Of a stretch of 39,540 nt of DNA, positions 1 through 39,540 are shown one piece after another. Position 1 is the first letter of the stretch, and every line of letters starts with the position of its first letter. The stretch comes from a virus. The translations under genes were made by a program, and so were the position numbers. The notes under the pieces were generated by a model. That model had not been told where the DNA came from. It saw only the letters and a list, made by a program, of their open reading frames with translations, and did not search any database. The stretch spans positions 1 through 39,540 of the IMG/VR virus record IMGVR_UViG_3300019124_000017, one strand, 5' to 3'.

Positions 1-127
1 TCGCCGCCGCTCCCTCAGTGCCCGAGCAGGCAGAGCAGCCGGCAGTAGCGGATGAGCGGGCTATGCTTTGCGCAAACTGCGGCAAGCACTTGGAGCAGGC
101 AGAGGGCTGCATCAGCGACTACCCAGA
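1..127. repeat. Terminal direct repeat, copy 1. Identical to 39414-39540, so this is a contig end overlap of a closed molecule.
   Basis: Both ends read base by base: tcgccgccgctccctcagtg...gcatcagcgactacccaga is present at both termini. Confidence 0.9.
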
Positions 128-782
128 AGAGGGCGAGTGGTTTTGCTCTCAGGCGTGCTACGACCAGCACTCGGATCTCGGCTGCCCTCATGAGAAGCAC
201 AGCGGTTACCGGCACCCTCACGAGGCAGAGCGCTTGATTGCGTGTGAAGCGGCACTGCGCTCGCTGGCTTGTTGGCTGGGAGTCGGCGGCTACAACGCAG
301 ACACGGTAGATGCCTCCACGTTCGAGGCCAAGATTCGTGATGGCGTTGAGCACCTGCTCGCCGCCGCCGCTCCCTCAGTGCCCGAGCAGGCAGAGCAGCC
401 GGCAGTGGTGGAAGGGCGGGCGGCCTACGCGCTGCGTCTGCTTGTTGCGGCCGGCCACATCACACAGGAGAGAGCCGACGAGTCGCTGGCGCTGGCCGAG
501 AAGTATGCCATCCCCACAGCACCCGCACAGCCGCCCTCGGCGGCTAGCTCCGGTGGTATGGGCGCTAGCTCCGGTGGTGCACCCGGCAACTCCGGTGGTA
601 TGGGGGCACAGCCGCCCTCGGCGCAGGGGCAAGAGGCGCTGGAAGAACTGCGGCGCGCGATCTGCGCCGTTGGCATCGTGGGCACCATTGACGGGCACGC
701 CGTGATCCGCCGAGAAAGCGTGATCGACCTGATCGACCGCCGGATCGCCGCCCTCTCTGGCGCACAAGGGGGTGGGGTGTGA
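1..782 (+). CDS. 3' part of the junction-spanning modular early protein. It holds a Cys-rich module, linker repeats and a Gly/Ser tandem.
   Basis: Tracked ORF 18..782 is open back to base 3 in the same frame. The stop TGA at 780-782 overlaps the GTG start of the next gene. Confidence 0.65.
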   Translation, partial: AAAPSVPEQAEQPAVADERAMLCANCGKHLEQAEGCISDYPEEGEWFCSQACYDQHSDLGCPHEKHSGYRHPHEAERLIACEAALRSLACWLGVGGYNADTVDASTFEAKIRDGVEHLLAAAAPSVPEQAEQPAVVEGRAAYALRLLVAAGHITQERADESLALAEKYAIPTAPAQPPSAASSGGMGASSGGAPGNSGGMGAQPPSAQGQEALEELRRAICAVGIVGTIDGHAVIRRESVIDLIDRRIAALSGAQGGGV

Positions 783-1414
783 GCACCGTCGCAGCCTTGT
801 TCGTTGAAACGGATGGCGTCTACTTCCGCATGCCGGATGTGGACCCGTGGGACAAGCAGCGGGATGCCCGCCAGTACGCCGGCCCGCATCCAGTGGTGGC
901 TCACCCGCCCTGCAAGCGATGGGGGCGCTTCTGGCACGGCAGCACCGCCAAGCCGCACCAGTTCAAGCTCGGTGCCGATGAAGGCTGCTTCGCCGCGGCA
1001 CTCACCGCCGTGCGCAACTTCGGAGGCGTGCTGGAGCACCCGGCGCACTCCAAGGCGTGGGCGTGGTTCGGCCTGAAGGCGCCCGAGCAGGGCAAGGGCT
1101 GGCAGCCGGCCGACGCATTCGGCGGCATGGCCTGCTATGTCGAGCAAGGGCACTACGGCCACGAGAGCCGCAAGCCGACGTGGCTGTACGCCGCTGGCTG
1201 CGCACTGCCGGAACTGAACTGGTCGAAGGGTGCCCAGCGCATCCCCGCCTGGATGATCGAGCGCTACGGCTACGAGAAGGCCCGGCGCATCGGTGTCGTC
1301 GCCATGATCGGCGGCAAGGACAAGGAACGGATCAGGGATCGCACACCACTGCCGTTCCGTGACGTTCTGCTGTCCATCGCGCGTGCAGCGCACAAGCAAC
1401 TGGAGGCAGCATGA
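779..1414 (+). CDS. C5-cytosine-methyltransferase-like protein. It is a minimal core with no obvious target-recognition domain.
   Basis: 211 aa. HPPCKRWG resembles C5-MTase motif IV (PC), VLEHPAHS resembles motif VI (ENV), and HESRKPTWLY resembles motif VIII. The motif I region (ALFVETDGVY) is degenerate. GTGA overlap with the upstream gene. Confidence 0.35.
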   Translation: MSTVAALFVETDGVYFRMPDVDPWDKQRDARQYAGPHPVVAHPPCKRWGRFWHGSTAKPHQFKLGADEGCFAAALTAVRNFGGVLEHPAHSKAWAWFGLKAPEQGKGWQPADAFGGMACYVEQGHYGHESRKPTWLYAAGCALPELNWSKGAQRIPAWMIERYGYEKARRIGVVAMIGGKDKERIRDRTPLPFRDVLLSIARAAHKQLEAA

Positions 1415-2720: not shown

Positions 2721-3788
2721 ATGCCCCGCAAGCCCCAGCAGCCCAACCAGCGCCCCCGCTTTCGCGTGCGCACCCGCCGCGGCGCGGCCGGCCAGGTCTA
2801 CACCTACTACTTCTGGGACGGCCGCACCCAGGGCCGCGGCGAGGTGCCGCTGGGCAGCGACTTCACGGCCGCGCTGGAGCGCTACGAGGAACTGGAGGGC
2901 CTGCGCTCGGCGCGCAAGGACAAGATCGCCGAGGCCTTCGACCGCTTCGAGCGCGAGGTGCTGACGCCCGAGCACTACCCCAGCGCCACCACCCGCCGCG
3001 ACTACCTGCTGTGCCTGACCAAGCTGCGGCCGGTGTTCGGCAACGCGGTGTGGGCCAGCGTCAAGACGCCACACCTGGCCGCCTACCGCGACAAGCGCAG
3101 CGCCAAGACGCGGGCCAACCGCGAGCTGGCCGTGCTGTCGATCGTGTGGGGGTGGGCGCGCGAATGGGGCCTCACGCAGCTGCCCTACCCGGGCTTTCGC
3201 ATGCGCAAGAACAAGGAAAGGGCGCGGCTGGTGCAGGTGAGCGACGAGGCATTCGAGGCGATCTACGCCGAGGCCGACCCCGTGCTGCGCCAGGCGCTGG
3301 ACACGATCACCGCCACCGGCCTGCGCATCACCGACGTGCTGCAGCTCACGCTGCCGCAGTTCAACGGCGGCCAGCTGCTGCGCGTCACGCCCAGCAAGAC
3401 GCAGCGCAAGGGCAAGACCATCGAGCTTGCGCTGAACGACCCTGAGCACCCCACCATCCTGGCCGACCTGTACGCGGCCCGCATGGCGCACCGCGGCGCG
3501 CTGCACATGCGCTGGCTGGCCGGCAGGGGCAATGAGACGATCACCTACCGGATGCTGGCCGATCGCTTCGGCGATGCGCGCGAGAAGGCCGCCAAGAAGG
3601 CCGCAGAATCGGGCCAGGATGCATTTTCAGCGCACGTCCGGGGGTTGATCCTCAGGGACATGCGAAAACACGCCGCAGACAAAGCGGAGAGCCTGCGCCA
3701 CGCCCAGGAACTGCTGCAGCACGACGACGTGCGCGTCACACGGCTGCACTACCGGGGCAAGGGCGAGCGGGTGAAGCCGTCGCGTTAG
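2721..3788 (+). CDS. int: Tyrosine recombinase, the phage integrase.
   Basis: 355 aa. Contains TGLRITDVLQL (box I Arg), LRDMRKHAA and LLQHDDVRVTRLHY (box II His/Tyr). It is the last gene of the + operon and lies next to the tRNA-derived attP. Confidence 0.85.
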   Translation: MPRKPQQPNQRPRFRVRTRRGAAGQVYTYYFWDGRTQGRGEVPLGSDFTAALERYEELEGLRSARKDKIAEAFDRFEREVLTPEHYPSATTRRDYLLCLTKLRPVFGNAVWASVKTPHLAAYRDKRSAKTRANRELAVLSIVWGWAREWGLTQLPYPGFRMRKNKERARLVQVSDEAFEAIYAEADPVLRQALDTITATGLRITDVLQLTLPQFNGGQLLRVTPSKTQRKGKTIELALNDPEHPTILADLYAARMAHRGALHMRWLAGRGNETITYRMLADRFGDAREKAAKKAAESGQDAFSAHVRGLILRDMRKHAADKAESLRHAQELLQHDDVRVTRLHYRGKGERVKPSR

Positions 3789-5935: not shown

Positions 5936-6552
5936 CAGCCGGCCACCAGCAGGCGGAACGCGCGGGCCGTGCGCTCCTGGCGGTCGGCCATGCCGTGGGT
6001 GCGGCCGTTGATGCGCTTGGTGATCTCCACCGCGCTGGAGGTATCGGCCAGCGCGTTACAGCCGCGGTCCTCCCAAAACCAGGCCGCGGCGCGGGCGCCG
6101 TGCTGGGGCAACTCCAGCAGCTCGGGGCAGTCGCGCAGCGGCAGGTTCAGGGCGATGCCGGCGCGGCGGTAGTTGTCGGCGCCGGTGATCTGCAGCGGGC
6201 CGCGGCCGCGGTAGCGCCATCCGTCGCCGCTTTCATAGGGCCCGTTGCCCATGCGGTTGGCATAGACCAGGTTGGCCAAGCGCTCGGGGGCGTGCGCGTA
6301 GTGGGCCGCGGCCTTGGCGTCAGGAAAGCGCGACGGCCACACTTCGCGCAGGCGCTGCAGCGAATAGTTCAGGTTCTCGGTGGTGCGGCTGAGCGAGCCG
6401 CTTTCGTGCCCCACCTGGCCCAGGAAGGCGGCGATGCGTGGGCGGGTGGTGATTTGCCGCTCGGTCATGGCCGACACAAACGGCTTGTGCCAGCGCTCGG
6501 CGAGATCGGCGGTGCAGCCGATGATGGCCGCGAACTGCTGCAGGGTGAACAT
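5935..6552 (-). CDS. Endolysin, glycoside hydrolase family 19 (chitinase-like).
   Basis: MFTLQQFAAIIGC...GQVGHESGSL...TENLNYS...YRGRGPLQITG. GGAGGA lies upstream of the ATG at 6552. The longer tracked ORF overlaps the holin and is rejected. Confidence 0.85.
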   Translation of the reverse strand: MFTLQQFAAIIGCTADLAERWHKPFVSAMTERQITTRPRIAAFLGQVGHESGSLSRTTENLNYSLQRLREVWPSRFPDAKAAAHYAHAPERLANLVYANRMGNGPYESGDGWRYRGRGPLQITGADNYRRAGIALNLPLRDCPELLELPQHGARAAAWFWEDRGCNALADTSSAVEITKRINGRTHGMADRQERTARAFRLLVAG

Positions 6553-6572
6553 GGGGTGTCTCCTCCGGGGTG

Positions 6573-6998
6573 TCAGGGTTTGGCGGGTGGCTGCAGGCGT
6601 GCGGCGAGGGCTTCCACCCAGCCCTCGCCGACACGAGACAGCAGGCGCGCGCCGGCATAGCCACCCAGCCACAGCGCAGCGCCCAGCAGCCACACGCCCC
6701 ATTCCTGCCAGGCGCCCACCGCGAAGGTGAGGAAGCCCACGCCGCTGGACACCACCACGTCCTTGGCCAGCTCCAGCCAGATCGGGAAGGGCTGCGGCGG
6801 CTCGGCCTTCACCGCCTCGAGCGCGCGCTCGGCGGTGCGGGTGAGGCCGCCCCACAGGCTGAGGGCCGCGCCGATGCCGATCTGCACCCACGGCAGGCCG
6901 GCCAGATCGGGCGGCACGCTGTCGGCCGCCATGGCGGTGGCCAGGGTGCCCAGGCCGATCAGCAGGCCCAGCAGGTTGCGAAGGGTTTCAAAGCGCAT
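6573..6998 (-). CDS. Putative holin, a multi-TM protein.
   Basis: 141 aa with several hydrophobic helices. It lies directly upstream of the endolysin. Confidence 0.6.
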   Translation of the reverse strand: MRFETLRNLLGLLIGLGTLATAMAADSVPPDLAGLPWVQIGIGAALSLWGGLTRTAERALEAVKAEPPQPFPIWLELAKDVVVSSGVGFLTFAVGAWQEWGVWLLGAALWLGGYAGARLLSRVGEGWVEALAARLQPPAKP

Positions 6999-18643: not shown

Positions 18644-19171
18644 CTACCTTGCACGGCGCCGGGGCGCGGCTTGTTGGCTGCGCGCGCCCATGGCGGGGGT
18701 TGTTCTGACAGTGACGGCCTGCTGCGGCCGCACGGACACCACGGCGCCGGGGACGAAGCCCGCACCGGCCTGCGCACGGGCGAGCAGGCGCACCCGCAGC
18801 GACGGCACACCAAACGCAGAGGCCGAGAGCACAGCGGCAGGAGCCACCGGCACCCCCTGCAGCCCGACGACCAGCGGCGCGCCACACGCCGACACAGCGG
18901 AGATGGCGGGCGCCTGCACTTGCGCCAGCTGCAGACGGACGATGGACGGCCCACCGACCAGCGCCGTCGAGCCCAGCGATCCGACCTGAAGGGCCGCGAC
19001 GCTGGTGCGCAGGATTGCCGGCGCCCCGAACGCCGCCGACGACGACAGGCCCGCGGGCGAGGCCTGTGCACGCCAGGCGACGGCGGGCGACCCCACCGCC
19101 GAGGCCGCCGGAACGCCCTGCGGGTAGACCTCGGCCGTGAGCGCCGATTGCAGGAGAAGCAGCAGCATCAC
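18644..19171 (-). CDS. Ala/Ser/Pro-rich repeat protein with about 6 degenerate units of the type S.SAFG.P.L.
   Basis: 175 aa. The start overlaps the upstream stop (GTG at 19171 or ATG at 19168). It is the only operon-strand ORF in this interval. Confidence 0.5.
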   Translation of the reverse strand: MMLLLLLQSALTAEVYPQGVPAASAVGSPAVAWRAQASPAGLSSSAAFGAPAILRTSVAALQVGSLGSTALVGGPSIVRLQLAQVQAPAISAVSACGAPLVVGLQGVPVAPAAVLSASAFGVPSLRVRLLARAQAGAGFVPGAVVSVRPQQAVTVRTTPAMGARSQQAAPRRRAR

Positions 19172-21069
19172 GCGAAGAAGAAGGCGCCGCTGACGTCGTT
19201 GGCGGCCAGGCCGGTGCTGGTGTTGTCGGTCAGGCCCTTGGCCGACGTGACGCTGTAGGTCATCGCCGTGGCGAAACCGATGCCGCCGGGAAGGTTGACG
19301 TCGCTGCGCCCGCCTGCGGGAATGTCGATCGTGAAGCTGGCCGAAGTCGTCCCCAGCGTGGGCGCGGTGGCGTTGAACACCTTCACGCTGCGAACACCGC
19401 TGGAGCTGTTCTGCAGTTGCCAGCCGATCAAGCGGCCCGCGCTGGCTTTGATGGTCGCAGCGGCGGGGGTGGCGGGCGATTGCACCGCCACAAACGAGGC
19501 GGCGCCCGTGGCGTTGGCACGGTATTGCACGCCCACATCGCCAATCGCGTTGGTGCTGGCTGCCGCCGTTACGGTGCCGGAGACGGGCTGCGTGCCCACT
19601 GACGGCGCGATCGGCTGATCGGCGCCCGACAGGTTGATCGCCGTCGTGCCGCCCGTGGTGGCCGTGGTCAACCGCAGCCTGAAGTACCTGGCCGCCACGT
19701 TGACCTGCCGCAGGATCGAGCCCGCGTTGAACGTCGTGCTGGACGCGCCGGCCTGGTCATACAGCGTCGCGGTGACCACGTTGGCGAAGTCGGGCGTGCT
19801 TGACCATTGCGCGGTCACCACCCCGCTCGTGCCCATGCTCACGCAATGGATCATCAGCGCTCGCAGCTGCGAGCAGTCGACCACGATCAGGTCGGTGTTG
19901 ATCGCAATGGCACCGGCCTGGGAGTAGGTGACGGTGGTCAACGGCGGGACGGCGGCGACGATGCGCTCGGTTTCCGAGAAGATCCCCACCTCGACCTTGT
20001 TGTGGTTCTTGGTGGTGATGTAGTCCACCGTCACGGTGGTGGAGCTGGCCGCGGCGCCGGTGTTCTCGCAGTCAATGGCCGAGGCCATGATGTCGTAAGC
20101 CGCCGGGATGACCCGGGTGTGCTCGGCGACCTGCACGCCGTTGACGAAGAACTTCACCGCCTCGGTCATCTGCTCGATTCGATACTCGAGCATGTTCGTC
20201 GTCGCCATCGGCGCCGGCAGCGTGACGGTGTAGCTTTCAACTTCGCCGCCGGCCGGCCCGGTCGTCGGGTTGCGCCCGGTCTCGGTGATCACGGTGGTGG
20301 CGTTGGTGCCGTCCAGCCGGAACCTGCAGTACCAACGCGGGTTGGCGCTGCGCTTCTCACGCAGGCCAATGTTGAAGCGCTGGTTGGCGATGCGCTGGCT
20401 GACCTGCACACGCTGCCGGCTGATCAGCGGCGAATAGTCCACCTCTCGCTCGAGCAGCGTCAACGAACCGGAGGTGGTGCCCGTGGTGATCACCGCATTG
20501 CCGCCGCTGACGGTGATGGAACCGCCGGAGCCGGTCTGCGGGCGCACCTGCGCGCGGCTGGCCGCGCCGGTGCCAGGCGTGCCGCGGTAGGGCTCGGTCA
20601 GGTAGATGGTCTCGTCGTCACCGATGCCGGCAATCTGCGTCCATGCCGATTCCGGGTCAGCGTCCAGCTTGAAGTAGTCCCGCAGGCTGGCAGCGCTGGC
20701 TGCAAAGCCGGTACCTGTGACCACATCGTCGGCCACCGTGCAGGTGCCGATCGGCACCGCCAACGAGGCGTTGGCGAAGTTAACCCGGTAGGTGCCTTCG
20801 TCCGTCAACACCGCGCCACGCACGGACAACGCGCCGCCCGGGTCCGTGCTCAACTCGGCGCGGTCAGCGCCGGGAGGCGCCCCATAGCTGGGCCAGTAGG
20901 CCACCTGCGTGGCCTTGAGCTTGAACGGGTACGGCGTTTCTTCCGTCACCTCCGTGGCCACGCCCTCCTCTCCATAAGCGAGCTTCGCCCGCTGAAAAAG
21001 GCTGCCCCCGACGTTGTCGCCAGCCACCGCGGTGCCGGTGGCTGGAAGTGCTGGGTTGGTGTAGGCCAT
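19168..21069 (-). CDS. Large unknown virion-type protein, beta-rich, with jelly-roll-like C-terminal domains.
   Basis: 633 aa, operon-coupled, with Thr/Ser/Gly/Val-rich composition typical of fibre or receptor-binding proteins. Confidence 0.6.
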   Translation of the reverse strand: MAYTNPALPATGTAVAGDNVGGSLFQRAKLAYGEEGVATEVTEETPYPFKLKATQVAYWPSYGAPPGADRAELSTDPGGALSVRGAVLTDEGTYRVNFANASLAVPIGTCTVADDVVTGTGFAASAASLRDYFKLDADPESAWTQIAGIGDDETIYLTEPYRGTPGTGAASRAQVRPQTGSGGSITVSGGNAVITTGTTSGSLTLLEREVDYSPLISRQRVQVSQRIANQRFNIGLREKRSANPRWYCRFRLDGTNATTVITETGRNPTTGPAGGEVESYTVTLPAPMATTNMLEYRIEQMTEAVKFFVNGVQVAEHTRVIPAAYDIMASAIDCENTGAAASSTTVTVDYITTKNHNKVEVGIFSETERIVAAVPPLTTVTYSQAGAIAINTDLIVVDCSQLRALMIHCVSMGTSGVVTAQWSSTPDFANVVTATLYDQAGASSTTFNAGSILRQVNVAARYFRLRLTTATTGGTTAINLSGADQPIAPSVGTQPVSGTVTAAASTNAIGDVGVQYRANATGAASFVAVQSPATPAAATIKASAGRLIGWQLQNSSSGVRSVKVFNATAPTLGTTSASFTIDIPAGGRSDVNLPGGIGFATAMTYSVTSAKGLTDNTSTGLAANDVSGAFFFA

Positions 21070-25292: not shown

Positions 25293-25976
25293 TTATGCAG
25301 GCACGCGGAAGCGGGCCAGCCGCTCGCTGAGGGCCTGCAGGGCTTTCGCCTCGACGTCGCTGCCGGCGGGTTCCCCCTCGGCGGCCAGGATCGTCTTGGC
25401 GCGGCTGACCAGCGCAGCGGCCAGCCCTTTGCTGAGGCCGCCTGCATCCCGCAGGAAGCGCTCGAAATCGCGGATGGTGAGAATGTCCTCGACGGCCTCG
25501 GCCATGTCGTCGGCCTTGACGCTGGCCACGCGGGCGGCGCCATCGGCCGGGAACACCACCGGGCTGAACTCCATCAGGTTGGACCACTTGCGGATCACTC
25601 GGCCGCCTTCGGTCTCCTCGTAGTCGCCCTTCTTCAGGAAGCCGCCGATGCTCAGGCCGTCCAGCGTGCCGTGCTTCATCGCGGCGTGCACGTCGTCGGC
25701 CAGGCTCATGCCCAGCGTCAGCTCGCCCTCGACGTAGAGGCCGTGGTCGTCTTCCTTCGCCACGGTGCACTTGGCGATCGGCATGCGCCACTCGTGGTTG
25801 AAGAACACCTTGGGCTTGCCGTTGTTGCGCAGCGTGCTCTCGAAGGCGCCCTTGATGATGGTGTCGCCATGGCTGTCGACACCGCCGAACACCGACGCGT
25901 AGCCGGCGAAGTGGCCGGTCTTGTCGTCGAGCTTCAGCTGAACATCACTGAGCTTCAGGTGTTTGCGTACCAGCAT
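25293..25976 (-). CDS. Prohead protease, HK97 family (S78).
   Basis: MLVRKHLKLSDVQLKLDDKTGHFAGYASVFGGVDSHGDTIIKGAF... GGAGG RBS. Confidence 0.85.
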   Translation of the reverse strand: MLVRKHLKLSDVQLKLDDKTGHFAGYASVFGGVDSHGDTIIKGAFESTLRNNGKPKVFFNHEWRMPIAKCTVAKEDDHGLYVEGELTLGMSLADDVHAAMKHGTLDGLSIGGFLKKGDYEETEGGRVIRKWSNLMEFSPVVFPADGAARVASVKADDMAEAVEDILTIRDFERFLRDAGGLSKGLAAALVSRAKTILAAEGEPAGSDVEAKALQALSERLARFRVPA

Positions 25977-27198
25977 TGGGGCCTCCGGTGGGCTGGGTCT
26001 TGCCGAGCATGTCGATCGGCACGAGGTTGGATTGCACGGTGAGCTGGTCCCCACCCGGCAGCGGCGGCAGGTTCTCCAGCTGCCGCGCTTCGTTGCGGGT
26101 GAGGATGCCGTTTTGGCTGCCGGTGGCGTAGACGCCGAAGCGGTCCTTGATGTTGCCGCGCAGCAGGGCGTCGAGGCTGAACTCGACCGTGTAGCGGGCG
26201 CGCTGCGCGGGGGTCAACACGCGCTTGCGCACGGCCTGCTCGATGCTGACCAGCATGGGGCGAATGGTGAACTTGTGGAACCCGTCGATGATCTGCTCGA
26301 CCCCGCTGCCCCAGGTGGTGACGTTGCTGTGGTGGGCCAGCACCGGGGGTACGTCGAACCAGCGGCAGATCTCCTCCACGCTGAAGCGGCGGGTTTCCAG
26401 CAGCTGCTGGTCTTCCGCGCTCATGCTGATCTGCTGGTACTTCATGCTCGCCTCGAGCAGGTACAGCCGGGCGGTGTTGCCGCGCGCCATTTCCGAGAAG
26501 CGCTCCAGCAGGGCCTCGCGCTGGCCAGGCTTGAGCGTGCTGTCGATCATCAGCACGCCGGTGGGCTTGCCGCCGTTGCCGAACAGGCGGGAGGCGCTGG
26601 TTTGCGCGGCCGCGGCCTCGTGCGTGGTGGCGCGCATGAAGTCCAGCTTGCTCAGGCCCACGCTGCCATTGCCCAGGCCCTTGAGGTGCAGCACGTTCTC
26701 GGCGGCCAGCACCGCCACGTTTTCGCCCAGGCGGTACAGGTAGACCTCGCTGCCGTCGTCGAGGATCCGCAGCTCCACCTGATCGGCCGGCATCGGCCAC
26801 AGTGCGACGGCCTCGCCGCGGTTGTCGCGGTCGATCCGCGCATACGCATTGCCGCGCAGATCGTGGTTCATCAGCATGGCCCGCCAGAACTCGAACGGCG
26901 TCATGCGGCTGTTGGGGCTGTCGTGCAGCAGGCTGTGCAGCCGCGACGTGCGCGCCACCGTGCGCCGGCCGTCGCCCAGGTCTTCGTAGGCGAAGAACGG
27001 CAGCGAGGCCACGGTGGTGGCGCGACGGTCCACGCAAGACCACACGGCCGACAGCTGCAGCGCGCCATCGAGCCCGAGGTTGGCCGTGTCGGGCACCAGC
27101 GAGGCCGAGGGCAGCGCCAGCTGCGTGCCGGGGCGCTCGGCCAGGGCGTTGCCACCCCAGCGGAACATGCCCAGCAGGGACTTCAGGGCGGGCACCAT
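25945..27198 (-). CDS. Portal protein, HK97 family.
   Basis: 417 aa, between TerL and the protease. ATGA overlap with TerL. Confidence 0.85.
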   Translation of the reverse strand: MVPALKSLLGMFRWGGNALAERPGTQLALPSASLVPDTANLGLDGALQLSAVWSCVDRRATTVASLPFFAYEDLGDGRRTVARTSRLHSLLHDSPNSRMTPFEFWRAMLMNHDLRGNAYARIDRDNRGEAVALWPMPADQVELRILDDGSEVYLYRLGENVAVLAAENVLHLKGLGNGSVGLSKLDFMRATTHEAAAAQTSASRLFGNGGKPTGVLMIDSTLKPGQREALLERFSEMARGNTARLYLLEASMKYQQISMSAEDQQLLETRRFSVEEICRWFDVPPVLAHHSNVTTWGSGVEQIIDGFHKFTIRPMLVSIEQAVRKRVLTPAQRARYTVEFSLDALLRGNIKDRFGVYATGSQNGILTRNEARQLENLPPLPGGDQLTVQSNLVPIDMLGKTQPTGGPNAGTQTPEAQ

Positions 27199-28865
27199 CA
27201 GGCGATCACCGGGGAGTTGATGAAGGCATCCAAGTCGATCACCTCATGGGTGGCGGCGCGGCTGAGGGCGATCACCGAGGCCACAATGCCGTCGATTCGC
27301 CCGTTCAGGTTCGATTTCTTCTTGTCCGGCCGGAAGTTGCCGTTGGTGTCGTACAGCAGCGCGACATTCGACGCGCAGTAGCGCAACACAGGGTTGCCGT
27401 CGTGGCGCAGGCGGCGCCCGAAAACCAGCATTTCCAGCGCCTTGGCGCCGGGGTACATGCCGCCGGTGTTCTGCGGCACGGCCACCCACTGCGTGTTGAT
27501 GCCCTCCAGGTCGTTGGCCACCTGGCGGGCGTTCCATTCGTCGAAGCCCAGCTCGACCAGCTCGAAGGTCTGCGCGGCCCAGCGGATTCGCTCTTTCACC
27601 GGGCCGTAGTCGGTCACGTCGCCAGGCGTGGCGGTAAGGTGCTTCTCGGCCTGCCAGCGCTTGTAGGGCGCGGCGTCGTCGGCCTCCTGCGCGTCCACCT
27701 TGGCCTGCGGGCACCAGAACCACACCAGCAGGTGCCATTCGCCGTCGCTCTCGTCGGGCGGGAACACCAGCGCGAAGGCGGTCAGATCGCGCGTGCTGGC
27801 CAGGTCCAGGCCGCCGTAACACCGCCGGCCCTTGAGCACCTGCCAATCGAAGCGCCGCGCGCCCTTGTCCCACACGTCGACGTCGAGCCAGCCCTCGGCG
27901 TCGTTGACCCACAGATTCAGGTCTTTGGTCTTGAAGTTGGCCAACGCGCTGGGCAGGGCCGCTGCCTTGCGCGCCATGCCCTTCATGTAGTCCAGCGTCT
28001 TGGACCGGCCCAATCCGGGGTTGGCCTTGATCCACACCCGCTCATCGAACGGGCTGTCGCCTTCGTCCAAGGTGTAGACGTAGCCGAAGAACGCGTCATC
28101 CTCGCGCCGCCCCTCCAGCACGCTGATGAGGTAGTTGCGCAGCTCGGTGCAGATGCCGTCGAGGATGAACCCCGCAGTGGTGATCGCCGACAGCAGCGGC
28201 TGCGCACGCGCGCCCAGCGCCGACTCCATCACGTCCCACACGTCGCGGGTCTTCTGCGCGTGCAGCTCATCGAACAGGATCGCGCTGGGGTTCAAGCCGT
28301 CCAGCGAATCGGCGGTCGCCGGCAGCGGGCGGAACACGCTTTCCAGCTCGCCCTCGGTCTTTACCGCCTCCTGGTTCGGCGCGGTGTAGACCTTCAGCGA
28401 GCGGGCCATGCCGGGCGATCGCTTCACCCACCGGCGCATGTTGTCGAAGGCCGGCTTAAACACCGTCATCGCCTGCTCGCGCTTGGTGGCCACCGCGTAC
28501 ACCTCGGCGCCGGCCTCGCCGTCCATCAGCATCAGGTAGGCGCCCTGCGGCCCCTTCCAGGTGCTCTTTCCGTTCTTGCGGGCCACCTCCTCGTAACCCC
28601 GGCTGAAGCGCCGCAGCCCATCCGACTGCCGCCGCCATCCGTACAGCACCGCTGTCCAGAACCGCTGCCACGGGTCCAGCAGGATCGGCTGCCCGGCCAG
28701 CGGTCCCTTGATGTGGCAGAACCACCGCTCCACGAACTGGATGACGTGCCACGCGTGCGGAGGGCTGAACACCAAGCCCCGCCGGTGCGCGTCCTTCAGG
28801 TCGCGGTAGTGGCGCAGCACCGCCAGATAGGCCAGCCGGCCGGTGACGACCTCGCCACGCAGCAC
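27198..28865 (-). CDS. terL: Terminase large subunit. The start is uncertain; the GTG at 28865 is proposed.
   Basis: ...LDPWQRFWTAVLYGWRR...EVARKNGKST (Walker A)...GAEVYAVATKREQA. The 651-aa tracked form overlaps TerS and is rejected. Confidence 0.85.
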   Translation of the reverse strand: MLRGEVVTGRLAYLAVLRHYRDLKDAHRRGLVFSPPHAWHVIQFVERWFCHIKGPLAGQPILLDPWQRFWTAVLYGWRRQSDGLRRFSRGYEEVARKNGKSTWKGPQGAYLMLMDGEAGAEVYAVATKREQAMTVFKPAFDNMRRWVKRSPGMARSLKVYTAPNQEAVKTEGELESVFRPLPATADSLDGLNPSAILFDELHAQKTRDVWDVMESALGARAQPLLSAITTAGFILDGICTELRNYLISVLEGRREDDAFFGYVYTLDEGDSPFDERVWIKANPGLGRSKTLDYMKGMARKAAALPSALANFKTKDLNLWVNDAEGWLDVDVWDKGARRFDWQVLKGRRCYGGLDLASTRDLTAFALVFPPDESDGEWHLLVWFWCPQAKVDAQEADDAAPYKRWQAEKHLTATPGDVTDYGPVKERIRWAAQTFELVELGFDEWNARQVANDLEGINTQWVAVPQNTGGMYPGAKALEMLVFGRRLRHDGNPVLRYCASNVALLYDTNGNFRPDKKKSNLNGRIDGIVASVIALSRAATHEVIDLDAFINSPVIA

Positions 28866-28906
28866 GGCCAGCCCGTAGCTGTCCCACTCCTCGAGGTGGG
28901 GCGGAA

Positions 28907-29392
28907 CTAGTTCGGCAACCCGTTTGGGCGTGAGCTGGTGGCGTGCCCGACGAGATCGGCGAACAGGTCGTCCTGCCCCGTCGCGGCGCCGCTCTCTTTG
29001 CGCACGCGCGTCAGCGACGGGATGGTCAAGCAAGCCTTCGGCAACCATTGGCCCAGCTCCATCTTCAGCCGCTTCTCGTCGTCCGCCCAAGGGGTCGGTG
29101 AGTACCAGCCGCTCTGTGCTTTCTGCACCCGGCCGAAGTTCGGGTCTTGGCACTTGGCCAGCGCGTCGAGCCAGTCGCAGTAGGTGCGCACGATCACCGC
29201 GATCGGCATGCCGGCCGTCAGGTGCTCGATGCCGGCCTCACGAAGCGAGGTGCAGATGTGCTCGAACACCTCCCGCTCACGCTCGCCGAACTTCATGCCT
29301 GGCGGCACCGTGGGCGACTGCAGCTGTGCACCGGCGCTGCGCGAGCTGGCCGGCGCCTGCTCACCAACGCTGAAGGGCACTTCGTCGCTCAT
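28907..29392 (-). CDS. terS: Terminase small subunit (P27-family-like).
   Basis: 161 aa, directly upstream of TerL and downstream of the HNH gene. The start could instead be the internal Met of MKFGERE. Confidence 0.6.
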   Translation of the reverse strand: MSDEVPFSVGEQAPASSRSAGAQLQSPTVPPGMKFGEREREVFEHICTSLREAGIEHLTAGMPIAVIVRTYCDWLDALAKCQDPNFGRVQKAQSGWYSPTPWADDEKRLKMELGQWLPKACLTIPSLTRVRKESGAATGQDDLFADLVGHATSSRPNGLPN

Positions 29393-30406: not shown

Positions 30407-31752
30407 CAGTCCAACCCCCTCCCGTTGCCCCCACGCACCACGCCGCGCATCGGCGGTGGGCCGTCCCAGTTGCCGAAGCGCTGCGTCGCGCCGTCGAAGT
30501 AGAGGTTGACCGTGCCCGTGGGGCCGTTCTTCTGCTTGACCACCCGCAGCTCGGCGTGGTGCTTGTTCTGGTCGGTCGGCTTGCGCATGGCCTCCCGGTG
30601 CAGCAGGCCGATCAGGTGGGCAGCGCCCTCGATATCGCCGCTGTCGCGCAGGTCTTGCATTTCCGGGCCGGTGGGCCGCTCGTCGGCCTTGCGGTTCAGC
30701 TGAGACAGCAGCACGATCCACGTGCCCAGCTCTTTGGCGACACGGCCCAGCCCGTTGGAGATCGCGCCCAGCGCCTGGTTGCGGTTGTCGCCCTCGCCGT
30801 CCGCGTCCATCAGCTGCAGGTAATCGATGATCACCAGCGCCGGCCGGCCGTGCCGGCGGGTCGTCTGCTGGATCTTGCGCCGCACGTCTCGCAGCGTCAG
30901 CGCCGCCTGATCGTCGATCACCAGCTTGGCGTTCTGCAGGGCCTCCACACCCTCGGTCACGCCGGCCCACATCGAATCCGGAGCGCGCTGCGGGCTGCGA
31001 ATGTCGGCCAGGTTCACCCGCCCGGCGGCAGCCACCTGCCGCGCCACCAGCATTTCGTTGCTGTCCTCCTGCGTCAGCGTCAGCACCACCTGCCCGCGCA
31101 GCGCGATGTTGCGGGCCAGCGTGAGCGTGATCGCCGTCTTGCCCATGGATGGCCGGGCGCCGATCACCCACAGCTCGCCCTCGCGCCCGCCGCCACCAGT
31201 GATGCGGTCCAGGTCGTCCAGCCCGGTGGCGATGGAATCGTCGCGCCCTTCTGCCCGCGCGCTCAGCCGGTCGAGGAAGTCGCCCAGCAGTTCCGCGATC
31301 ACCCGCGGTTCGTCCTGCACCTCGCCACGCTCCAAGGCCAGCAGCGCCGTCACCGTCTTGTCGATCAACTCGGCCGGCTCAGCAGCACCACGCATCGCGT
31401 CGTCGACTAGCCCGCTGCCGATGCGCATCAGCTCCCGCGCACGCCAGTGCTTCAGCACGATCTGCGCGTAAGCCCGCACGTTGGCCGCACTGACCACGCT
31501 TTGCGCCAAGGCGCTCAGGTAGCGCATTTCATGGCCGCCAGCTTCGTACACCGTCACCAGATCGGCCGGCTGCTGCGCCCCGATCAGCTGAGCAATCGTG
31601 CTGTAGATCGCCCGGTGTTGCGGGTGGTAGAAGCTCTCGCCGCTGAGCAGGTTCGCCACGTGGTCGAAGCACCGGTTGTCCAGCAGCAGCCCGCCCAGCA
31701 CGGCCTGCTCGGCCTCGTTGCTGTGGGGAGGGGTCAGCTCGTGCAGGTTCAT
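30406..31752 (-). CDS. dnaB: Replicative DNA helicase.
   Basis: 448 aa. PPHSNEAEQAVLGGLLLDN and Walker A GARPSMGKTA. Confidence 0.9.
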   Translation of the reverse strand: MNLHELTPPHSNEAEQAVLGGLLLDNRCFDHVANLLSGESFYHPQHRAIYSTIAQLIGAQQPADLVTVYEAGGHEMRYLSALAQSVVSAANVRAYAQIVLKHWRARELMRIGSGLVDDAMRGAAEPAELIDKTVTALLALERGEVQDEPRVIAELLGDFLDRLSARAEGRDDSIATGLDDLDRITGGGGREGELWVIGARPSMGKTAITLTLARNIALRGQVVLTLTQEDSNEMLVARQVAAAGRVNLADIRSPQRAPDSMWAGVTEGVEALQNAKLVIDDQAALTLRDVRRKIQQTTRRHGRPALVIIDYLQLMDADGEGDNRNQALGAISNGLGRVAKELGTWIVLLSQLNRKADERPTGPEMQDLRDSGDIEGAAHLIGLLHREAMRKPTDQNKHHAELRVVKQKNGPTGTVNLYFDGATQRFGNWDGPPPMRGVVRGGNGRGLD

Positions 31753-32675
31753 CGCTCGTTCTCCTCGTCAGGTTGTTGTTCGGCACGCTCGGCGTCGCGC
31801 AGGCGCTGCTCCTGCAGCCCCACGGTCGTGAGCTGGTAGTCGCCCTCGGGCCGCAGTGCCCACAGCCGCAGGTAGTTGCCCTCGACGTAGTTGCGGAAGG
31901 TCTGCCGCCAATCGCTTTGCGTCTTGCGCGGCTTGCCCAGGTGTCGGCGCTTGAAGGCGAACCACGCCAGCGCCACCAGGTCATCCGGCAGCCCCACCTG
32001 GGCGGCATAGCGCCACACGGGGTCGCTTTCCGGCACCGGCTTCACGCCCTCGGCCTTGCAGGCAGCCACGAAGGCCCCGAGGTTCACCGCCTCGCGCTTT
32101 CGCTTGCCCTTGCCACCCTGCGACCCCTCAGCCCACACCGAAGGGGGTGAAGCGCCCCCCTTTTTGGGGACAGGTTGCGATTCCCCCTGCAAAGGGGGTA
32201 AGGGGGTATTTGTATTTGGTTCTATGACGGTTTGGGTGCCACTGTGGCGGGGTGCGTCCGCCTGTGTGGCGGGGTGCCTGTGTGGCGGGGTGCCTGTGTG
32301 GCGGGGTGCTCCCCCATCCAAAGCACCCGTTTCGGCTTCCTCGTCAGCCGGTCCAGCAGCCGCCGCAGCCCGCTGTTCGGCCAGCATTTGGCGGAGTGCG
32401 CCCAGCCTGACCACGTACCGGTTCACGAACGTGGCGCCGCCCGCATACACCACCTTGCGGGCCGACTTGAACACCTGCAGCAGCCCCCGGGCCTCCAGCT
32501 CGCGCAGCGACCGCTGCACCGTGCGTTCGCCCAGGCAGGTGCGCCGGCAGATCGTGCCGACGGACGGCCAGCACTCGCCCTCATCGTTGGCCTGATCCGC
32601 CAGGCTGATCAGCACCACCTTCTCGGTAGCGGGCAAAAAAAGCGGCCAACAGGCCGCCATCACGATCGTGCTCAT
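31749..32675 (-). CDS. Replication initiator / helicase-loader-like protein with an N-terminal winged HTH.
   Basis: 308 aa from MSTIVMAACWPLFLPATEKVVLISLADQANDEGECWPS. It lies upstream of dnaB and contains iterons in its linker region. Confidence 0.65.
   Translation of the reverse strand: MSTIVMAACWPLFLPATEKVVLISLADQANDEGECWPSVGTICRRTCLGERTVQRSLRELEARGLLQVFKSARKVVYAGGATFVNRYVVRLGALRQMLAEQRAAAAAGPADEEAETGALDGGAPRHTGTPPHRHPATQADAPRHSGTQTVIEPNTNTPLPPLQGESQPVPKKGGASPPSVWAEGSQGGKGKRKREAVNLGAFVAACKAEGVKPVPESDPVWRYAAQVGLPDDLVALAWFAFKRRHLGKPRKTQSDWRQTFRNYVEGNYLRLWALRPEGDYQLTTVGLQEQRLRDAERAEQQPDEENER
32243..32309. repeat. Iterons: four copies of TGTGGCGGGGTGC, the last three on a 16-nt period. This is the candidate origin of replication.
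   Basis: Copies at 32243-55, 32265-77, 32281-93 and 32297-309. An AT-rich tract (tatttgtatttggttctatga) lies next to them at about 32207-32227. Confidence 0.6.
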
Positions 32676-32676
32676 G

Positions 32677-33030
32677 TCAGGTGCGTCCTGCCGCCTGTGC
32701 GAAGTTGAAGACGCTGGATGCCGCGCGCATCCGCTCCAGGCGCCGCCGGGCGGCATGTGCTTTCACATTCGAGGCGCTGCGCCCCACCACCATCAGATGG
32801 GCCGGGTTCACGCAACGTGGGTCGGCGCAGCGCAGCCGCACCGTCTTGCTGAGGCTCATCGGCTCGCCGCGCTGCTGCACGGCCCAACGGCGCACCAGCT
32901 GCCCCGGGCGGCCGTTGATGCAGGCCTGCGGCTGCCCGCTGTGGTGCATGCCCTCCTGCCACAGCCAGCAGCCCGCCACCACCTCGCAGCGGCTGCGCAG
33001 CGTGTCCAGGGTCCAGCGCTTCGCGGTCAT
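32677..33030 (-). CDS. HNH_3-like zinc-binding, DNA-binding or nuclease-type protein.
   Basis: 117 aa. GCWLWQEG...INGRPGQLVRRWA...RCADPRCVNPAHL pattern. Confidence 0.5.
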   Translation of the reverse strand: MTAKRWTLDTLRSRCEVVAGCWLWQEGMHHSGQPQACINGRPGQLVRRWAVQQRGEPMSLSKTVRLRCADPRCVNPAHLMVVGRSASNVKAHAARRRLERMRAASSVFNFAQAAGRT

Positions 33031-34452: not shown

Positions 34453-34488
34453 ATTAAACATGCTTAACCGTCTGACTGTCAAGCATGC
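34453..34488 (-). promoter_or_regulatory. PR-like promoter (TTGACA-18-TTTAAT) overlapped by operator-like GCATGCTTGACAG / ACATGCTTAAC sites.
   Basis: The -35 is the reverse complement of 34477-34482 and the -10 is the reverse complement of 34453-34458. An inverted pair CATGCTTAAC-9-GTCAAGCATG is present. Confidence 0.5.
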
Positions 34489-34525
34489 CTTACCCCTTCC
34501 CGGCACCGCGCTTAAGCTGGCTTAC

Positions 34526-34990
34526 ATGGATGAGGAAAAGGGCGGCCCGAGACGGAAACTCGTGAAGTTTCCCGAGGCGGCAGCGCGCCTACACGAAGCC
34601 ATCGCGCGCTCGGGCCTAGACCCAACAGAGGCCAGGCGCCTGCTTGTGCAGCGCCTCGGCATCAGCAATTCCGCGATCGGCGATGCCCTTAAGGGGTTCA
34701 CGCGGCTGCGGGCAGACAACACAGCGCTGGCCGCCCGCGCGCTGAACGTCAGCGCCCATTGGCTGGCAACAGGCGAGGGCTCGCTGGACCCCGGGCTATC
34801 GCCCGAGGTGATGCGGATCGCCGTTCAGCTCGAATCGCTCAAGAGTGACCCCGCTCGGCGCGCGTGGGCGATTCGCTTCTGCGAGCTATTTGCGTTTGCT
34901 CGCCCGCCTCAGACGGCCGCGGAGACTCTGGATCTGGTCGCAGAGGTGACCGGCGAACTTCGAGCCACCCCTGCGCATCTAGGAGGCTGA
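34526..34990 (+). CDS. cI-like repressor with an HTH and no S24 peptidase domain.
   Basis: 154 aa from MDEEKGGPRRKLVKFPEAAARLHEAIARSGL...LGISNSAIGDALKG...ALNVSAHWLATGEG. It is divergent from the Cro-like gene. Confidence 0.65.
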   Translation: MDEEKGGPRRKLVKFPEAAARLHEAIARSGLDPTEARRLLVQRLGISNSAIGDALKGFTRLRADNTALAARALNVSAHWLATGEGSLDPGLSPEVMRIAVQLESLKSDPARRAWAIRFCELFAFARPPQTAAETLDLVAEVTGELRATPAHLGG

Positions 34991-38060: not shown

Positions 38061-38315
38061 ATGGCCGCAACAGCCCACCACCTGCCCACCCACGACCTGC
38101 CCACCGGCGAGTTTCTGACGGCCGCCGAGCTGGCGGACCTGACCGGCAAGACCACCGGCGCCGCGCAATGCCGCGCGCTCGACGACATGGGATGGCGCTA
38201 TGTGCGCCGCGGCAACACGCCGGTGGTGGGCCGCTGGTATGCCCGACTGCGCGCCGCGGGCCTGAGCCCCACCAACGCCGCGAACGACGAGCCCGACCTG
38301 GGCGCGGTTTCTTGA
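38061..38315 (+). CDS. DUF4224-like small DNA-binding protein, a possible excisionase or accessory factor.
   Basis: 84 aa. FLTAAELADLTGKTTGAAQCRALDDMGWRYVRRGNTPVV pattern. Confidence 0.45.
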   Translation: MAATAHHLPTHDLPTGEFLTAAELADLTGKTTGAAQCRALDDMGWRYVRRGNTPVVGRWYARLRAAGLSPTNAANDEPDLGAVS

Positions 38316-38329
38316 GCAAAGGCAACAGC

Positions 38330-39540
38330 ATGACCCAAGACCACCAAGCGCTGGCCGCCCTGCGCCGGCTGATCGCCAACGACGCGCACGCCTGCACGTT
38401 CCAGAGCTTCGGCCAGTACCGCACAGCGCTGCTGGAGCACATCGACAAGCTCGCCGCCCTCGCCCAGCAGGAGGCAGCAGAGCCGGCGGGCTTCCACGAC
38501 AAGGACCAACCGGAGGGCATCGCCTGGTGCCCCGGCTACCCGGACAAGCTGCAGGACATAACGCCCCTCTACACCACCCCACCAGCACCACAGCACGCAG
38601 GGGCGGCAGAACCCGTCGGCAGCGTGGTGTGGAGCATTACTGGCAGGCCAGTGTTTGCGTCGTTGAACCCGGAATGGTTTGCGTCCCTGCGACACAGCAA
38701 ATCGCCCGTGCCCCTCTACACCACTCCCACCCCTGCAGCACAGGGGCTGACGGATGCGCAGATCGACACGCTGCTGCATGAGATCGATCGCATTGCCAGG
38801 GAGTACGACGTGCACGAGTACGGGCTGCCACTTGGTATCGACGACGACGCGTACTCAGCACCACAGGCCGCAATGATCGCCGCCGTTCGCGCCGCCCTCG
38901 CCACCACCGAGCAGGCACCCGCGCCGTCTATCGCCCTCCCTATCGACCAATCTATCGCCATTCGCGCAGAAAGGGGTGATAGGGCCGAGCAGGCACCCGC
39001 AGCACTGACGTGGCCGGTGATGCCGCCCTCAAAGGGGCAGTCGCCCGTGCTTTTCGAGGATGGGTACGCCGAGGGATGGGCGAAGTGCGATTCGCAATAC
39101 CGCGCCCTGCTCGCCGCCGCTCCCTCAGTGCCCGAGCAGGCAGAGCAGCCGGCAGTGGCGGGGCCTGTTGCTCGCGCGCTTGAAGCCTCGTATCTCAACG
39201 CCACGCTCGCCACCCCCACAGCACCCGCACAGCAGGCAGAGCAGCCGGCAGTGGACGTTGGGCAGATGGAATACCGAGGCAACAGCGTCGCTTACATCTA
39301 CCAGAAGTTGACCGCGTACCGGAGTGCGATCGACAAGGCGTGGGACGCAATGCGCGCCGCTGGCTTCCCACCTGACGGCAAGACCGCACTTGCTGATGCC
39401 ATCACCGCCGCAATCGCCGCCGCTCCCTCAGTGCCCGAGCAGGCAGAGCAGCCGGCAGTAGCGGATGAGCGGGCTATGCTTTGCGCAAACTGCGGCAAGC
39501 ACTTGGAGCAGGCAGAGGGCTGCATCAGCGACTACCCAGA
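38330..39540 (+). CDS. 5' part of a junction-spanning modular early protein of about 621 aa in total. It continues at 1..782.
   Basis: ATG at 38330 (MTQDHQALAALRRLIANDAH...) with no stop to the window end. It is in frame with 18..782 once 39414 is equated with position 1. High GC3. It contains AAAPSVPEQAEQPAV linkers. Confidence 0.65.
   Translation, partial: MTQDHQALAALRRLIANDAHACTFQSFGQYRTALLEHIDKLAALAQQEAAEPAGFHDKDQPEGIAWCPGYPDKLQDITPLYTTPPAPQHAGAAEPVGSVVWSITGRPVFASLNPEWFASLRHSKSPVPLYTTPTPAAQGLTDAQIDTLLHEIDRIAREYDVHEYGLPLGIDDDAYSAPQAAMIAAVRAALATTEQAPAPSIALPIDQSIAIRAERGDRAEQAPAALTWPVMPPSKGQSPVLFEDGYAEGWAKCDSQYRALLAAAPSVPEQAEQPAVAGPVARALEASYLNATLATPTAPAQQAEQPAVDVGQMEYRGNSVAYIYQKLTAYRSAIDKAWDAMRAAGFPPDGKTALADAITAAIAAAPSVPEQAEQPAVADERAMLCANCGKHLEQAEGCISDYP
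39414..39540. repeat. Terminal direct repeat, copy 2. Identical to 1-127.
   Basis: Same 127-nt string as the window start. The reading frame of the ORF starting at 38330 continues into the frame of ORF 18..782. Confidence 0.9.

Follow-up and report, generated by a model that had tools for sequence, protein, structure and literature searches.

IMG/VR virus record IMGVR_UViG_3300019124_000017, analyzed over its whole length of 39,540 nucleotides (nt) and called the window here, carries at its two ends the parts of a single long gene whose protein product looks like a string of small modules joined by linkers. We refer to it as the bead gene. Its open reading frame (ORF) begins with an ATG at 38330, runs on the plus strand across the end of the record and stops with the TGA at 780-782, which gives 1866 nt and 621 amino acids (aa). 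Positions 1-127 are identical to 39414-39540, and the window is a circular sequence of 39413 unique nt that has been rotated and bears a 127-nt terminal duplication. The same protein is encoded on the European Nucleotide Archive (ENA) contig ERZ27286118:k141_310921 (39538 nt), which starts at window position 34258 and whose own 125-nt overlap is placed elsewhere than the duplication in the window. That contig matches the window across the junction with 0 mismatches and carries the ORF uninterrupted as an internal gene (L002 4073-5938), and thus the junction is only an artifact of rotation. Window position 1 is exactly the first base of a 46-nt linker repeat.

The frame has the composition of a coding sequence from end to end. 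In each 40-codon block of all 1866 nt, the G+C content at third codon positions (GC3) is 0.65-0.93 and that at second positions (GC2) is lower. The start codon is backed by the relatives P0030 and P0032, both beginning MTQDREALA, and the stop codon shares bases with the GTG at 779 that starts the next gene. The bead gene is one continuous coding ORF. A frameshift or pseudo-fusion was considered and ruled out because the GC3 periodicity is unbroken. An earlier note on this DNA had proposed an ORF of about 621 aa running from 38330 through the end of the record to 782, and this proposal holds in the public ENA contig.

Modules were mapped by a phmmer search with the whole protein against 1.84 billion representative proteins (E <= 1e-3), taking module coverage and architectures from the best 150 of 701 matches. 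The coverage profile of these 150 gives about 10-11 modules, which are listed below in gene order together with the joints between them. Percent identities of joints refer to three other IMG/VR loci (L015, L016, and L018) that share them, and P numbers denote proteins related to the bead protein.

38330..39413, plus strand: 5' portion of the bead gene, from aa 1 up to codon 362, continuing at window position 1
1..782, plus strand: 3' portion of the bead gene, from codon 362 through the stop (780-782); 1-127 duplicate 39414-39540
38330..38464, plus strand: M1, N-terminal helical module, aa 1-45; phrog_13471 match (function unknown, E 4.5e-7); MTQD..AL start common to P0030 and P0032
38471..38587, plus strand: M2, aa 48-86; consensus PVAFHDKDQPxGIAWCPGYPxKLxDITPLYTTP; 14 homologs in the best 150; 96% nt identity over 155 nt to L016
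38612..38734, plus strand: M3, aa 95-135; second module of the 'PVG...PLYTTP' type; rare
38721..38763, plus strand: joint TTPTPAAQGLTDAQI; 43 nt, 100% identical to L016
38747..38914, plus strand: M4, helical, aa 140-195; homolog in P0089
38888..38922, plus strand: joint ALATTEQAPA; 31-35 nt, 97-100% identical to L015, L016, and L018; first EQAPA 16-nt copy
38985..39016, plus strand: joint EQAPAALT; 21-32 nt, 94-100% identical to L015, L016, and L018; second EQAPA copy
38999..39103, plus strand: M5, aa 224-258; WPxMPPSKGQSPVLFEDGYAEGWAKC; in 40-50 of the best 150, depending on the criterion; also in phage phiAxp-2
39111..39158, plus strand: linker copy 1, AAAPSVPEQAEQPAV; exact 46-47-nt repeat
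39158..39211, plus strand: M6, 18-aa helical peptide, aa 277-294, between linker copy 1 and the PTAPAQ joint
39214..39254, plus strand: joint PTAPAQ (20-nt repeat, copy 1), then the half copy QAEQPAV (24-nt exact repeat)
39251..39409, plus strand: M7, aa 308-360; consensus VGxLEYRGNSVAYIHQKMxAYRxxIDxAWxAMRxAGxxPDGKT; in 53-56 of the best 150
1..46 (= 39414-39459), plus strand: linker copy 2; exact repeat
63..221, plus strand: M8a, Cys/His zinc-finger-like module, core aa 383-435 (383-442 in the mapping)
222..362, plus strand: M8b, two long helices, aa 436-482 (443-482 in the mapping); LIxCExALRSLAxWLGxGGYNAPxVDAxVFExKIRxGV; also occurs without M8a
362..408, plus strand: linker copy 3; exact repeat
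411..506, plus strand: M9, helical, aa 499-530; weak phrog_33347 match
512..542, plus strand: joint PTAPAQ (copy 2) and AQPPSA (copy 1); 34 nt, 94-97% identical to L016 and L018
537..605, plus strand: Gly/Ser-rich insert, aa 541-563; flanked by 18-nt AQPPSA copies; missing from the otherwise identical L016 joint
606..641, plus strand: joint AQPPSAQGQEAL (AQPPSA copy 2); 91-94% identical to L016 and L018
630..761, plus strand: M10, C-terminal module, aa 572-615; 5 homologs in the best 150
749..785, plus strand: C-terminal joint LSGAQGGGV plus stop; 34-36 nt with 97-100% identity to L016 and L018; stop overlapping the next start (GTG, 779)

Judged by their homologs, the beads are independent evolutionary units, each with its own family. 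Of the 701 matches, 91 reach E <= 1e-10 and 19 reach E <= 1e-30. Each of the best 150 (match lengths 62-686 aa) spans one module or at most four: M5 alone accounts for 42, M7 alone for 39, M8a-M8b for 19, M6-M7 and M2 alone for 10 each, M8a alone for 6, and M8b alone and M10 alone for 5 each, with three or four modules together in isolated cases only. The modules recur elsewhere in other orders and combinations or near the starts of short proteins, several of which have their own Met just ahead of the module (P0031, 112 aa; P0034, 116 aa; P0081, 80 aa; P0146, 110 aa; P0107); metagenomic proteins may be truncated, and this stand-alone status is secure for the N-terminal side only. A MAFFT patchwork in which 120 fragments were aligned to the whole protein placed most of them wrongly and was discarded.

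The most widespread modules are also strongly constrained. M5 is a nearly invariant 30-aa peptide in 46 aligned relatives, and across dozens of proteins with nothing else in common, despite heavy synonymous divergence; between loci, on average 11.3 of its 27 core codons differ synonymously and 2.9 non-synonymously, a codon pattern by which the peptide is under strong purifying selection. The copy of M5 in the window lacks the second Cys of the usual KCxxxC. In Achromobacter phage phiAxp-2, the ORF bearing M5 lies at 2539-3465 of L001 (loci L001/L003). M2 and M3 share a 'PV(A/G)... PLYTTP' frame, and relatives show 'EPVAW...PLY/F.AP'. M7 is predicted to be a helical hairpin, and for it a profile search of the PDB gave weak matches to designer PPR repeat proteins that add up without any single stretch passing, no more than a hint of such a fold; an M5 profile found no PDB match.

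No known family accounts for the protein. With Pfam (E <= 1), the bead protein gave only NIR_SIR_ferr, DUF7576, and TRASH_HVO_1752_C, all under the cut-off, and no Ead_Ea22 (PF13935/IPR025153). With NCBIfam, it gave only a sub-threshold PP0621_fam match, and with PHROGs only weak matches, all to families of unknown function. Ten long multi-module relatives likewise showed nothing above the Pfam threshold and no enzymatic domain. Members of the family turn up almost exclusively in phage and metagenome sequences. When one representative genome for each of 185,579 bacterial and archaeal species was scanned with profiles of M5 and M8, with a back-translated M5 pattern, and with the linker core of 22 nt, no locus was confirmed, and the two modules appear to be missing from this set, although the homolog P0007 is present in an Achromobacter xylosoxidans isolate. 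A 44-aa M5 profile run against 5.8e9 proteins returned 14 candidates and 1 match.

The module with the most legible fold is M8. Its first part has the cysteines C385-x2-C388-x21-F409-C410-S411-x2-C414, followed by H418, C423, H425, and H433, and so carries the C-x2-C-x19-22-C-x3-C pattern with an F-C-S motif. The four Cys are kept in nearly all alignment rows that contain M8a; H418, C423, H425, and H433 are conserved as well and could form a second metal site. An AlphaFold model of aa 373-497 from a 33-sequence alignment has a mean predicted local distance difference test score (pLDDT) of 86.8 and shows a knuckle, a beta-hairpin (27-30/35-37 in model numbering), and a helix (40-49), then two long helices. 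Foldseek comparison of this model with PDB and BFVD gave ClpX zinc-binding domain, L24e, MYND, and VATC as top matches, none significant (E 0.15-4), and a PDB profile search gave ZMYM5 (MYM finger) at E 0.023 and L24e at E 0.15.

Among 33 M8a members, sub-threshold Pfam matches were to DUF7576 (16), zf-MYND (9), DUF2116 (6), zf-FLZ and zf-FCS (5 each), and TRASH (2), and PP0621_fam of NCBIfam scored 20.3 bits against a cut-off of 45; M8a has no match above any curated threshold in either database. The spacing and the predicted knuckle-hairpin-helix order are those of the TRASH, zf-FCS (MYM), MYND, and L24e treble clefs, and the matches, none of them significant, agree on this class. M8a differs from these in its extra His/Cys cluster, in its accompanying two-helix M8b, which also stands alone, and in that its matches stay below threshold. 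We therefore describe it as treble-clef zinc-finger-like, with a TRASH/FCS/MYND-type signature, and do not file it in one family. Treble-clef fingers usually bind proteins or nucleic acids. A Cys/His-rich module had been pointed out before, and it lies at aa 385-435; the accompanying remark that no module was recognizable can be refined for this one, given its treble-clef-type pattern and confident model.

The linkers between the modules are repeated as DNA. The 15-aa linker AAAPSVPEQAEQPAV occurs three times in the protein (aa 262-276, 363-377, and 484-498), and its three DNA copies are exact over 45-47 nt (39111-39158, 1-46, and 362-408), with a wobble base in the last Val codon of copy 2 as the sole difference in 15 codons. 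The half copy QAEQPAV is an exact 24-nt repeat (39231-39254). Four other short peptides are encoded by exact in-frame repeats in two copies each: PTAPAQ (20 nt; 39214 and 512), AQPPSA (18 nt; 525 and 606), EQAPA (16 nt; 38907 and 38985), and PLYTT (15 nt; 38563 and 38710). In total, 13 pairs of exact repeats 15 nt or longer lie in the gene. Codon shuffles (500 trials) averaged 0.01 such pairs and never exceeded 1, and when an 1866-nt window was slid along the genome, 109 of its 132 positions contained none. The joints are in-frame DNA repeats far above chance, and the 46-47-nt triple repeat is the longest of its kind among the loci examined.

M5 varies at synonymous sites and the linker copies hardly do, and therefore neither codon bias nor selection on the peptide is the cause of the linker identity. 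Recent common descent, through duplication, gene conversion, or recombination, does explain it on this sequence comparison. RNA structure in the linker was rejected, as the linker RNA folds no better than shuffled sequences (z = 0.75). A diversity-generating retroelement was also rejected: a 1.9-kilobase (kb)-window scan found no repeat longer than 47 nt, and there is no adenine-specific variation between copies; the genome was not scanned for a reverse transcriptase.

One of the smaller repeats may preserve a trace of how the gene grows. The Gly/Ser-rich segment (aa 541-563, 537-605) lies between the two 18-nt copies of AQPPSA, and L016 has a single copy there; this difference fits the footprint of an unequal exchange. 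The insert itself, ASSGGMGASSGGAPGNSGGMG, is of low complexity and has its own 15-nt internal repeats.

What the earlier note observed is thus confirmed, and its interpretation is partly supported. The chain of unrelated modules exists, with separate homolog families, and its count of at least six rises to about 10-11; modules do occur in other orders or near the starts of short proteins among the 701 protein matches; and the protein does not belong to a single known multi-domain family, as Pfam, NCBIfam, and PHROGs gave no above-threshold match of known function. The same linker does stand at three sites, exact at the DNA level over 45-47 nt, and the half copy that had been placed near 39232 is the exact repeat at 39231-39254. 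What had been noticed was the repeated peptide; its conservation as DNA and its sharing with other phages had been missed.

This sharing came to light when three queries, the 22-nt core of the linker and two further joint sequences, found the three IMG/VR loci introduced above, with L015 on one contig and L016 and L018 on another (IMGVR_UViG_3300019124_000103, 82.5 kb). The ORFs of all three, and the protein P0016, which shares the joints of the window at the protein level, have the joints in the same order: ALATTEQAPA, (E/K)QAPAALT, AAPSVPEQAEQPAV, TPTAPAQPPSAQG(QEAL), and the C-terminal LSGAQGGGV plus stop. A blastn comparison of the window gene with L015, L016, and L018 gave only 21-55-nt patches of 92-100% identity that coincide with the linkers, together with M2 in L016. 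Between the joints, the four carry sequence that is unrelated to that of the window and differs in length. For example, the slot from AAPSVPEQAEQPAV to TPTAPAQ holds M6 (18 aa) in one instance and M9 (32 aa) in another within the window gene, AKH(D)AVCLWEGTAIRSASDIVNCSCV in L016 and L018, and ALTIPAVQDAAMAARGHMAYRAKMLA in L015. In P0016, QAPAALT leads directly into M7, with M5 and M6 skipped, and the L016 bead locus is split into two ORFs.

The backbones around these genes add to the picture. L018 has a homolog of the downstream gene of the window that is 90.5% identical over 629 nt, placed one ORF further down, and its bead gene matches at the joints only; by this comparison, L018 is a related backbone with a re-filled bead gene. 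With L015 and L016, the window has almost nothing else in common, and thus the joints are spread across unrelated backbones. GC3 of the interior modules is 0.55-0.82, versus 0.83-0.95 for most backbone genes sampled, which fits imported cassettes. The 82.5-kb contig holds two different bead loci of the same linker type, or dialect, and may be two related phage genomes of about 41 kb joined together or a chimeric assembly. In the L016 phage, there appears, as read by eye, to be an Erf-like protein just upstream.

Repeated linkers recur in the family at large, and other relatives use other dialects. ASAPVA occurs 34 times in 14 proteins, 11 of which have at least 2 copies, and in the phiAxp-2 protein ALA45429.1 its copies are 15-19-nt exact repeats. 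A QAEAVP/QPQAEA dialect is found in 9 proteins. An internally repeated hexamer of A/P/Q/E/S/V/T is present in 16 of the 42 relatives of at least 300 aa, and exact repeats of 15 nt or longer are nearly absent from the other ORFs at the relatives' loci.

The genes around the bead gene place it in the genome. They are as follows, starting from its upstream side and ending with the replication gene on the opposite strand.

34460-34990, plus strand: repressor-like gene
between the repressor and the xis-like gene, plus strand: run of small overlapping ORFs
38061-38315, plus strand: excisionase-like (xis-like) DUF4224 gene, directly ahead of the bead gene
779-1414, plus strand: phrog_12600 gene, unknown function; 90% nt identity to L018; HPPCKRW motif; start overlaps the bead-gene stop (GTGA)
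1411-2091 and 2088-2414, plus strand: two further ORFs
2411-2719, plus strand: Lar-like restriction-alleviation gene
2721-3788, plus strand: tyrosine integrase
31749-32756, minus strand: O-like replication initiator

The source is a lambdoid temperate phage. Its opposite strand encodes the O-like initiator, a DnaB-like helicase, and the large terminase and portal (25945-29153). By analogy with lambda, the bead gene matches the place of the ea22/exo-xis genes in the early-left operon, which is where the earlier note had put it; the plus-strand order of repressor, xis-like gene, bead gene, Lar-like gene, and integrase bears this out. A megablast of 9.4 kb against a phage collection found no match, and tblastn with the large ORF at 19168-21069 found only a weak match to a Caulobacter phage.

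Several features of the neighborhood deserve mention in their own right. The genes at 1411-2091 and 2088-2414 look mosaic and have low GC3 (0.72 and 0.78), and residues 80-192 of the 226-aa downstream product align with the C termini of nine PHROG families (profiles of 186-685 positions). The downstream genes show patchy similarity to L018, including a 41-nt patch at 100% (2230-2270). Inside the O-like gene lies a tandem array of four 16-22-nt units, GGGTGCC..TGTGGCGGGGTGC (32234-32309), which are probably origin iterons arranged as in lambda O/ori. The bead-gene repeats were also considered as such iterons, and this was rejected: the linker copies are separated by 96-360 nt and sit in a gene that is not one for replication, and the true candidate for such an array is the one inside the O-like gene.

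Taken together, these data lead us to propose, with a probability of about 0.68, that the bead gene is an accessory early gene that occupies a position like that of lambda ea22 and evolves through the exchange of cassettes at recombination joints encoded by its linkers. Its single polypeptide would string some ten small autonomous modules (short conserved peptides, helical hairpins, and one treble-clef zinc-finger-like domain) on Ala/Pro/Gln/Glu-rich linkers. In the protein, the linkers would probably act as flexible spacers; in the DNA, they would act as short, conserved, in-frame joints of 20-55 nt. Homologous recombination at such joints, both within the gene and between co-resident phages, could insert, delete, duplicate, and swap modules while keeping the frame, with no new promoter or ribosome-binding site needed. 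Unequal exchange at one joint might have produced the three-and-a-half linker copies, each event adding a cassette. Most likely, each module would bind its own host or phage partner early in infection or induction. A homology of 20-55 nt is the length that phage single-strand annealing recombinases use efficiently.

Several points weigh against this proposal. All DNA loci of the same dialect come from one sample, 3300019124, and form a small set, and in many relatives no linker repeat reaches 15 nt, which means that the family can do without repetition. No variant of the same gene with a deleted or duplicated module was found, in a search of 5.8e9 proteins that gave 13 proteins only, and a metagenome scan with the 22-nt linker core gave one match, L017, which has a non-phage context and no bead-like ORF and is a chance match. 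No recombination event was seen directly, and no single-strand annealing recombinase was recognized in the early operon of the window. The function, including any host-takeover or anti-defense role, is deduced from position only (adjoining the Lar-like gene, at an ea22-like place), and the flexibility of the linkers finds no support in the single-sequence AlphaFold model of the full protein, which is uninformative (pLDDT 40).

Among the alternatives, the one that survives best, though we consider it unlikely, is that the product is one cooperative multi-domain scaffold or hub like the tetrameric lambda Ea22, serving for instance the lysis-lysogeny decision, and that its mosaicism is a by-product of ordinary phage recombination. 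The gene does occupy the ea22 place, with xis on one side and the remaining early-left operon on the other; Ea22 proteins show mosaicism of their own and have C-terminal domains that are portable (PMC10834534, PMC7093339); and long intact ORFs are kept in all relatives. However, the Ead_Ea22 signature is absent, the module sets are almost wholly different between phages that share joints, and the two ORFs of the split L016 locus do not suit a single cooperative chain.

A polyprotein is less probable still, and we regard it as a poor prospect. The repeated linker would then be a cleavage site at which a host or phage protease frees small early proteins. Modules of the size of stand-alone phage ORFs, some near the starts of short proteins, are what such a precursor might contain, the identical 15-aa linker could act as a repeated recognition site, and peptidases are known to process the multidomain polyvalent proteins of phages (PMC5512222). 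Yet scans of the bead protein and of neighbors turned up no peptidase domain, and the linkers of relatives differ (ASAPVA, QAEAVP) and offer no common cleavage motif. Selection at the peptide level does not require a linker conserved at synonymous sites, and several joints of other sequence also bound modules in the same protein. The polyprotein reading of the earlier note is not sustained, as neither a protease nor signs of processing turned up.

The remaining two explanations are very improbable. That the contig is chimeric or mis-ordered, having been assembled through 46-nt repeats common to co-occurring phages, is conceivable for metagenomic data from a short-read assembler with repeats shared in the community, and the window and the ENA contig are not demonstrably independent assemblies; against it, the contig name k141_... 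suggests a k-mer of 141, which like the overlaps of 125-127 nt exceeds the longest repeat of 47 nt and should keep the repeats from confusing the assembly, the frame is open and coding through all joints, and relatives with the same architecture derive from isolates (phiAxp-2 ALA45429.1 and Achromobacter xylosoxidans P0007). That the repeats are DNA-level sites (iterons or protein-binding sites) or RNA structure that happens to lie in a coding region would account for their exactness at synonymous positions, but the copies are 96-360 nt apart and not tandem, they keep the same reading frame of a long ORF in every phage, the linker RNA folds with z = 0.75 relative to shuffles, the separate O-like gene has its own tandem array (32234-32309), and at least 6 different repeat families bound modules.

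Returning to cassette exchange at linker joints, a bolder extension is that the joints are portable in-frame recombination sites, making the early gene an expandable cassette array, a 'protein-level integron' without an integrase. We offer this tentatively and consider it somewhat more likely to be wrong than right. If it is true, then phages that share a host community and a linker dialect would trade small host-directed modules that are expressed automatically in one polypeptide, and the gene would be a tractable, concrete case of the long-debated boundary-sequence mechanism of phage mosaicism. Hundreds of uncharacterized small modules, such as WPxMPPSKGQSPVLFEDGYAEGWAKC, would also become candidate host-takeover or anti-defense effectors.

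The crossover points of phage mosaics are usually invisible, and the boundary-sequence idea has few clear examples. In the bead gene, at least 8 boundaries lie in one reading frame, are translated as linkers, and are shared with phages that carry different modules, which offers a direct test of recombination at defined 20-50-nt joints. The arrangement would also explain how temperate phages may assemble and reshuffle accessory early functions without regulatory signals, and linker dialects provide a simple rule for splitting long 'hypothetical' phage proteins into functional units. The analysis furthermore defines M5, M7, M2, and M8 as widespread and strongly constrained small modules that are outside Pfam and NCBIfam and have only weak PHROG matches to families of unknown function; given their conservation, they are reasonable candidates for host-factor binding. 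Because a cultured phage of the same architecture exists, Achromobacter phage phiAxp-2, experiments are feasible.

The nearest known kinds of protein are the Ea22 and polyvalent proteins, and on the defining features tested the bead protein belongs to neither. Lambda Ea22 is tetrameric, pro-lysogenic, and mosaic, with portable C-terminal domains such as DUF551 (PMC10834534, PMC7093339). Like ea22, the bead gene is a non-structural accessory early gene in the exo-xis region of the early-left operon, beside xis and int, the location expected of an Ea22-like family. It differs in having about ten modules rather than three and in its repeated linkers conserved as DNA, a feature not described for Ea22. 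Some bead proteins or their neighbors (P0112 and L016rc 6264-6932) appear to have a DUF551-like ending (...THWMPLP.GP), and such tails, read by eye, link the bead family to the portable-domain pool of Ea22.

Polyvalent proteins have 2-15 unrelated domains, are rich in enzymes (methylases, peptidases, ADP-ribosyltransferases, and nucleases), and are predicted to be injected with the DNA (Iyer et al. 2017, PMC5512222). The bead protein resembles them as a combinatorial set of many unrelated domains in one polypeptide of a mobile element, presumably acting early in infection. Unlike them, it has small modules with no enzymatic or recognized family and, in Pfam and NCBIfam, no zincin-like peptidase, and its gene lies in the early operon and not among the scanned structural genes, which is not the delivery context of the polyvalent type.

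Combinatorial exchange between mobile elements also invites an analogy, and only that, with integrons at the level of cassettes and with endolysins at the level of domains. An integron relies on a site-specific integrase acting at attC sites, and each of its cassettes is an entire gene. Endolysins show intragenic mosaicism (PMC3314691, PMC9371310), and their shuffling has been ascribed to illegitimate recombination between domains (PMC9371310). Unlike in either, the 'sites' of the bead gene are translated linkers, and the machinery is likely general homologous recombination. In the literature searched, we found no description of translated, repeated, and shared linker joints, which is not proof of absence.

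The nearest known mechanism is the boundary-sequence model (Susskind and Botstein; Clark et al.), in which, as summarized in PMC3029335, short conserved module borders let homologous recombination swap the segment between them; one case described there has sequences of about 50 bp. The window gene has just such short stretches, which are conserved from phage to phage and coincide exactly with the edges of otherwise unrelated segments. It is unlike the boundary-sequence cases in that at least 8 joints lie inside one ORF, in frame, where they encode linkers and are repeated within the gene.

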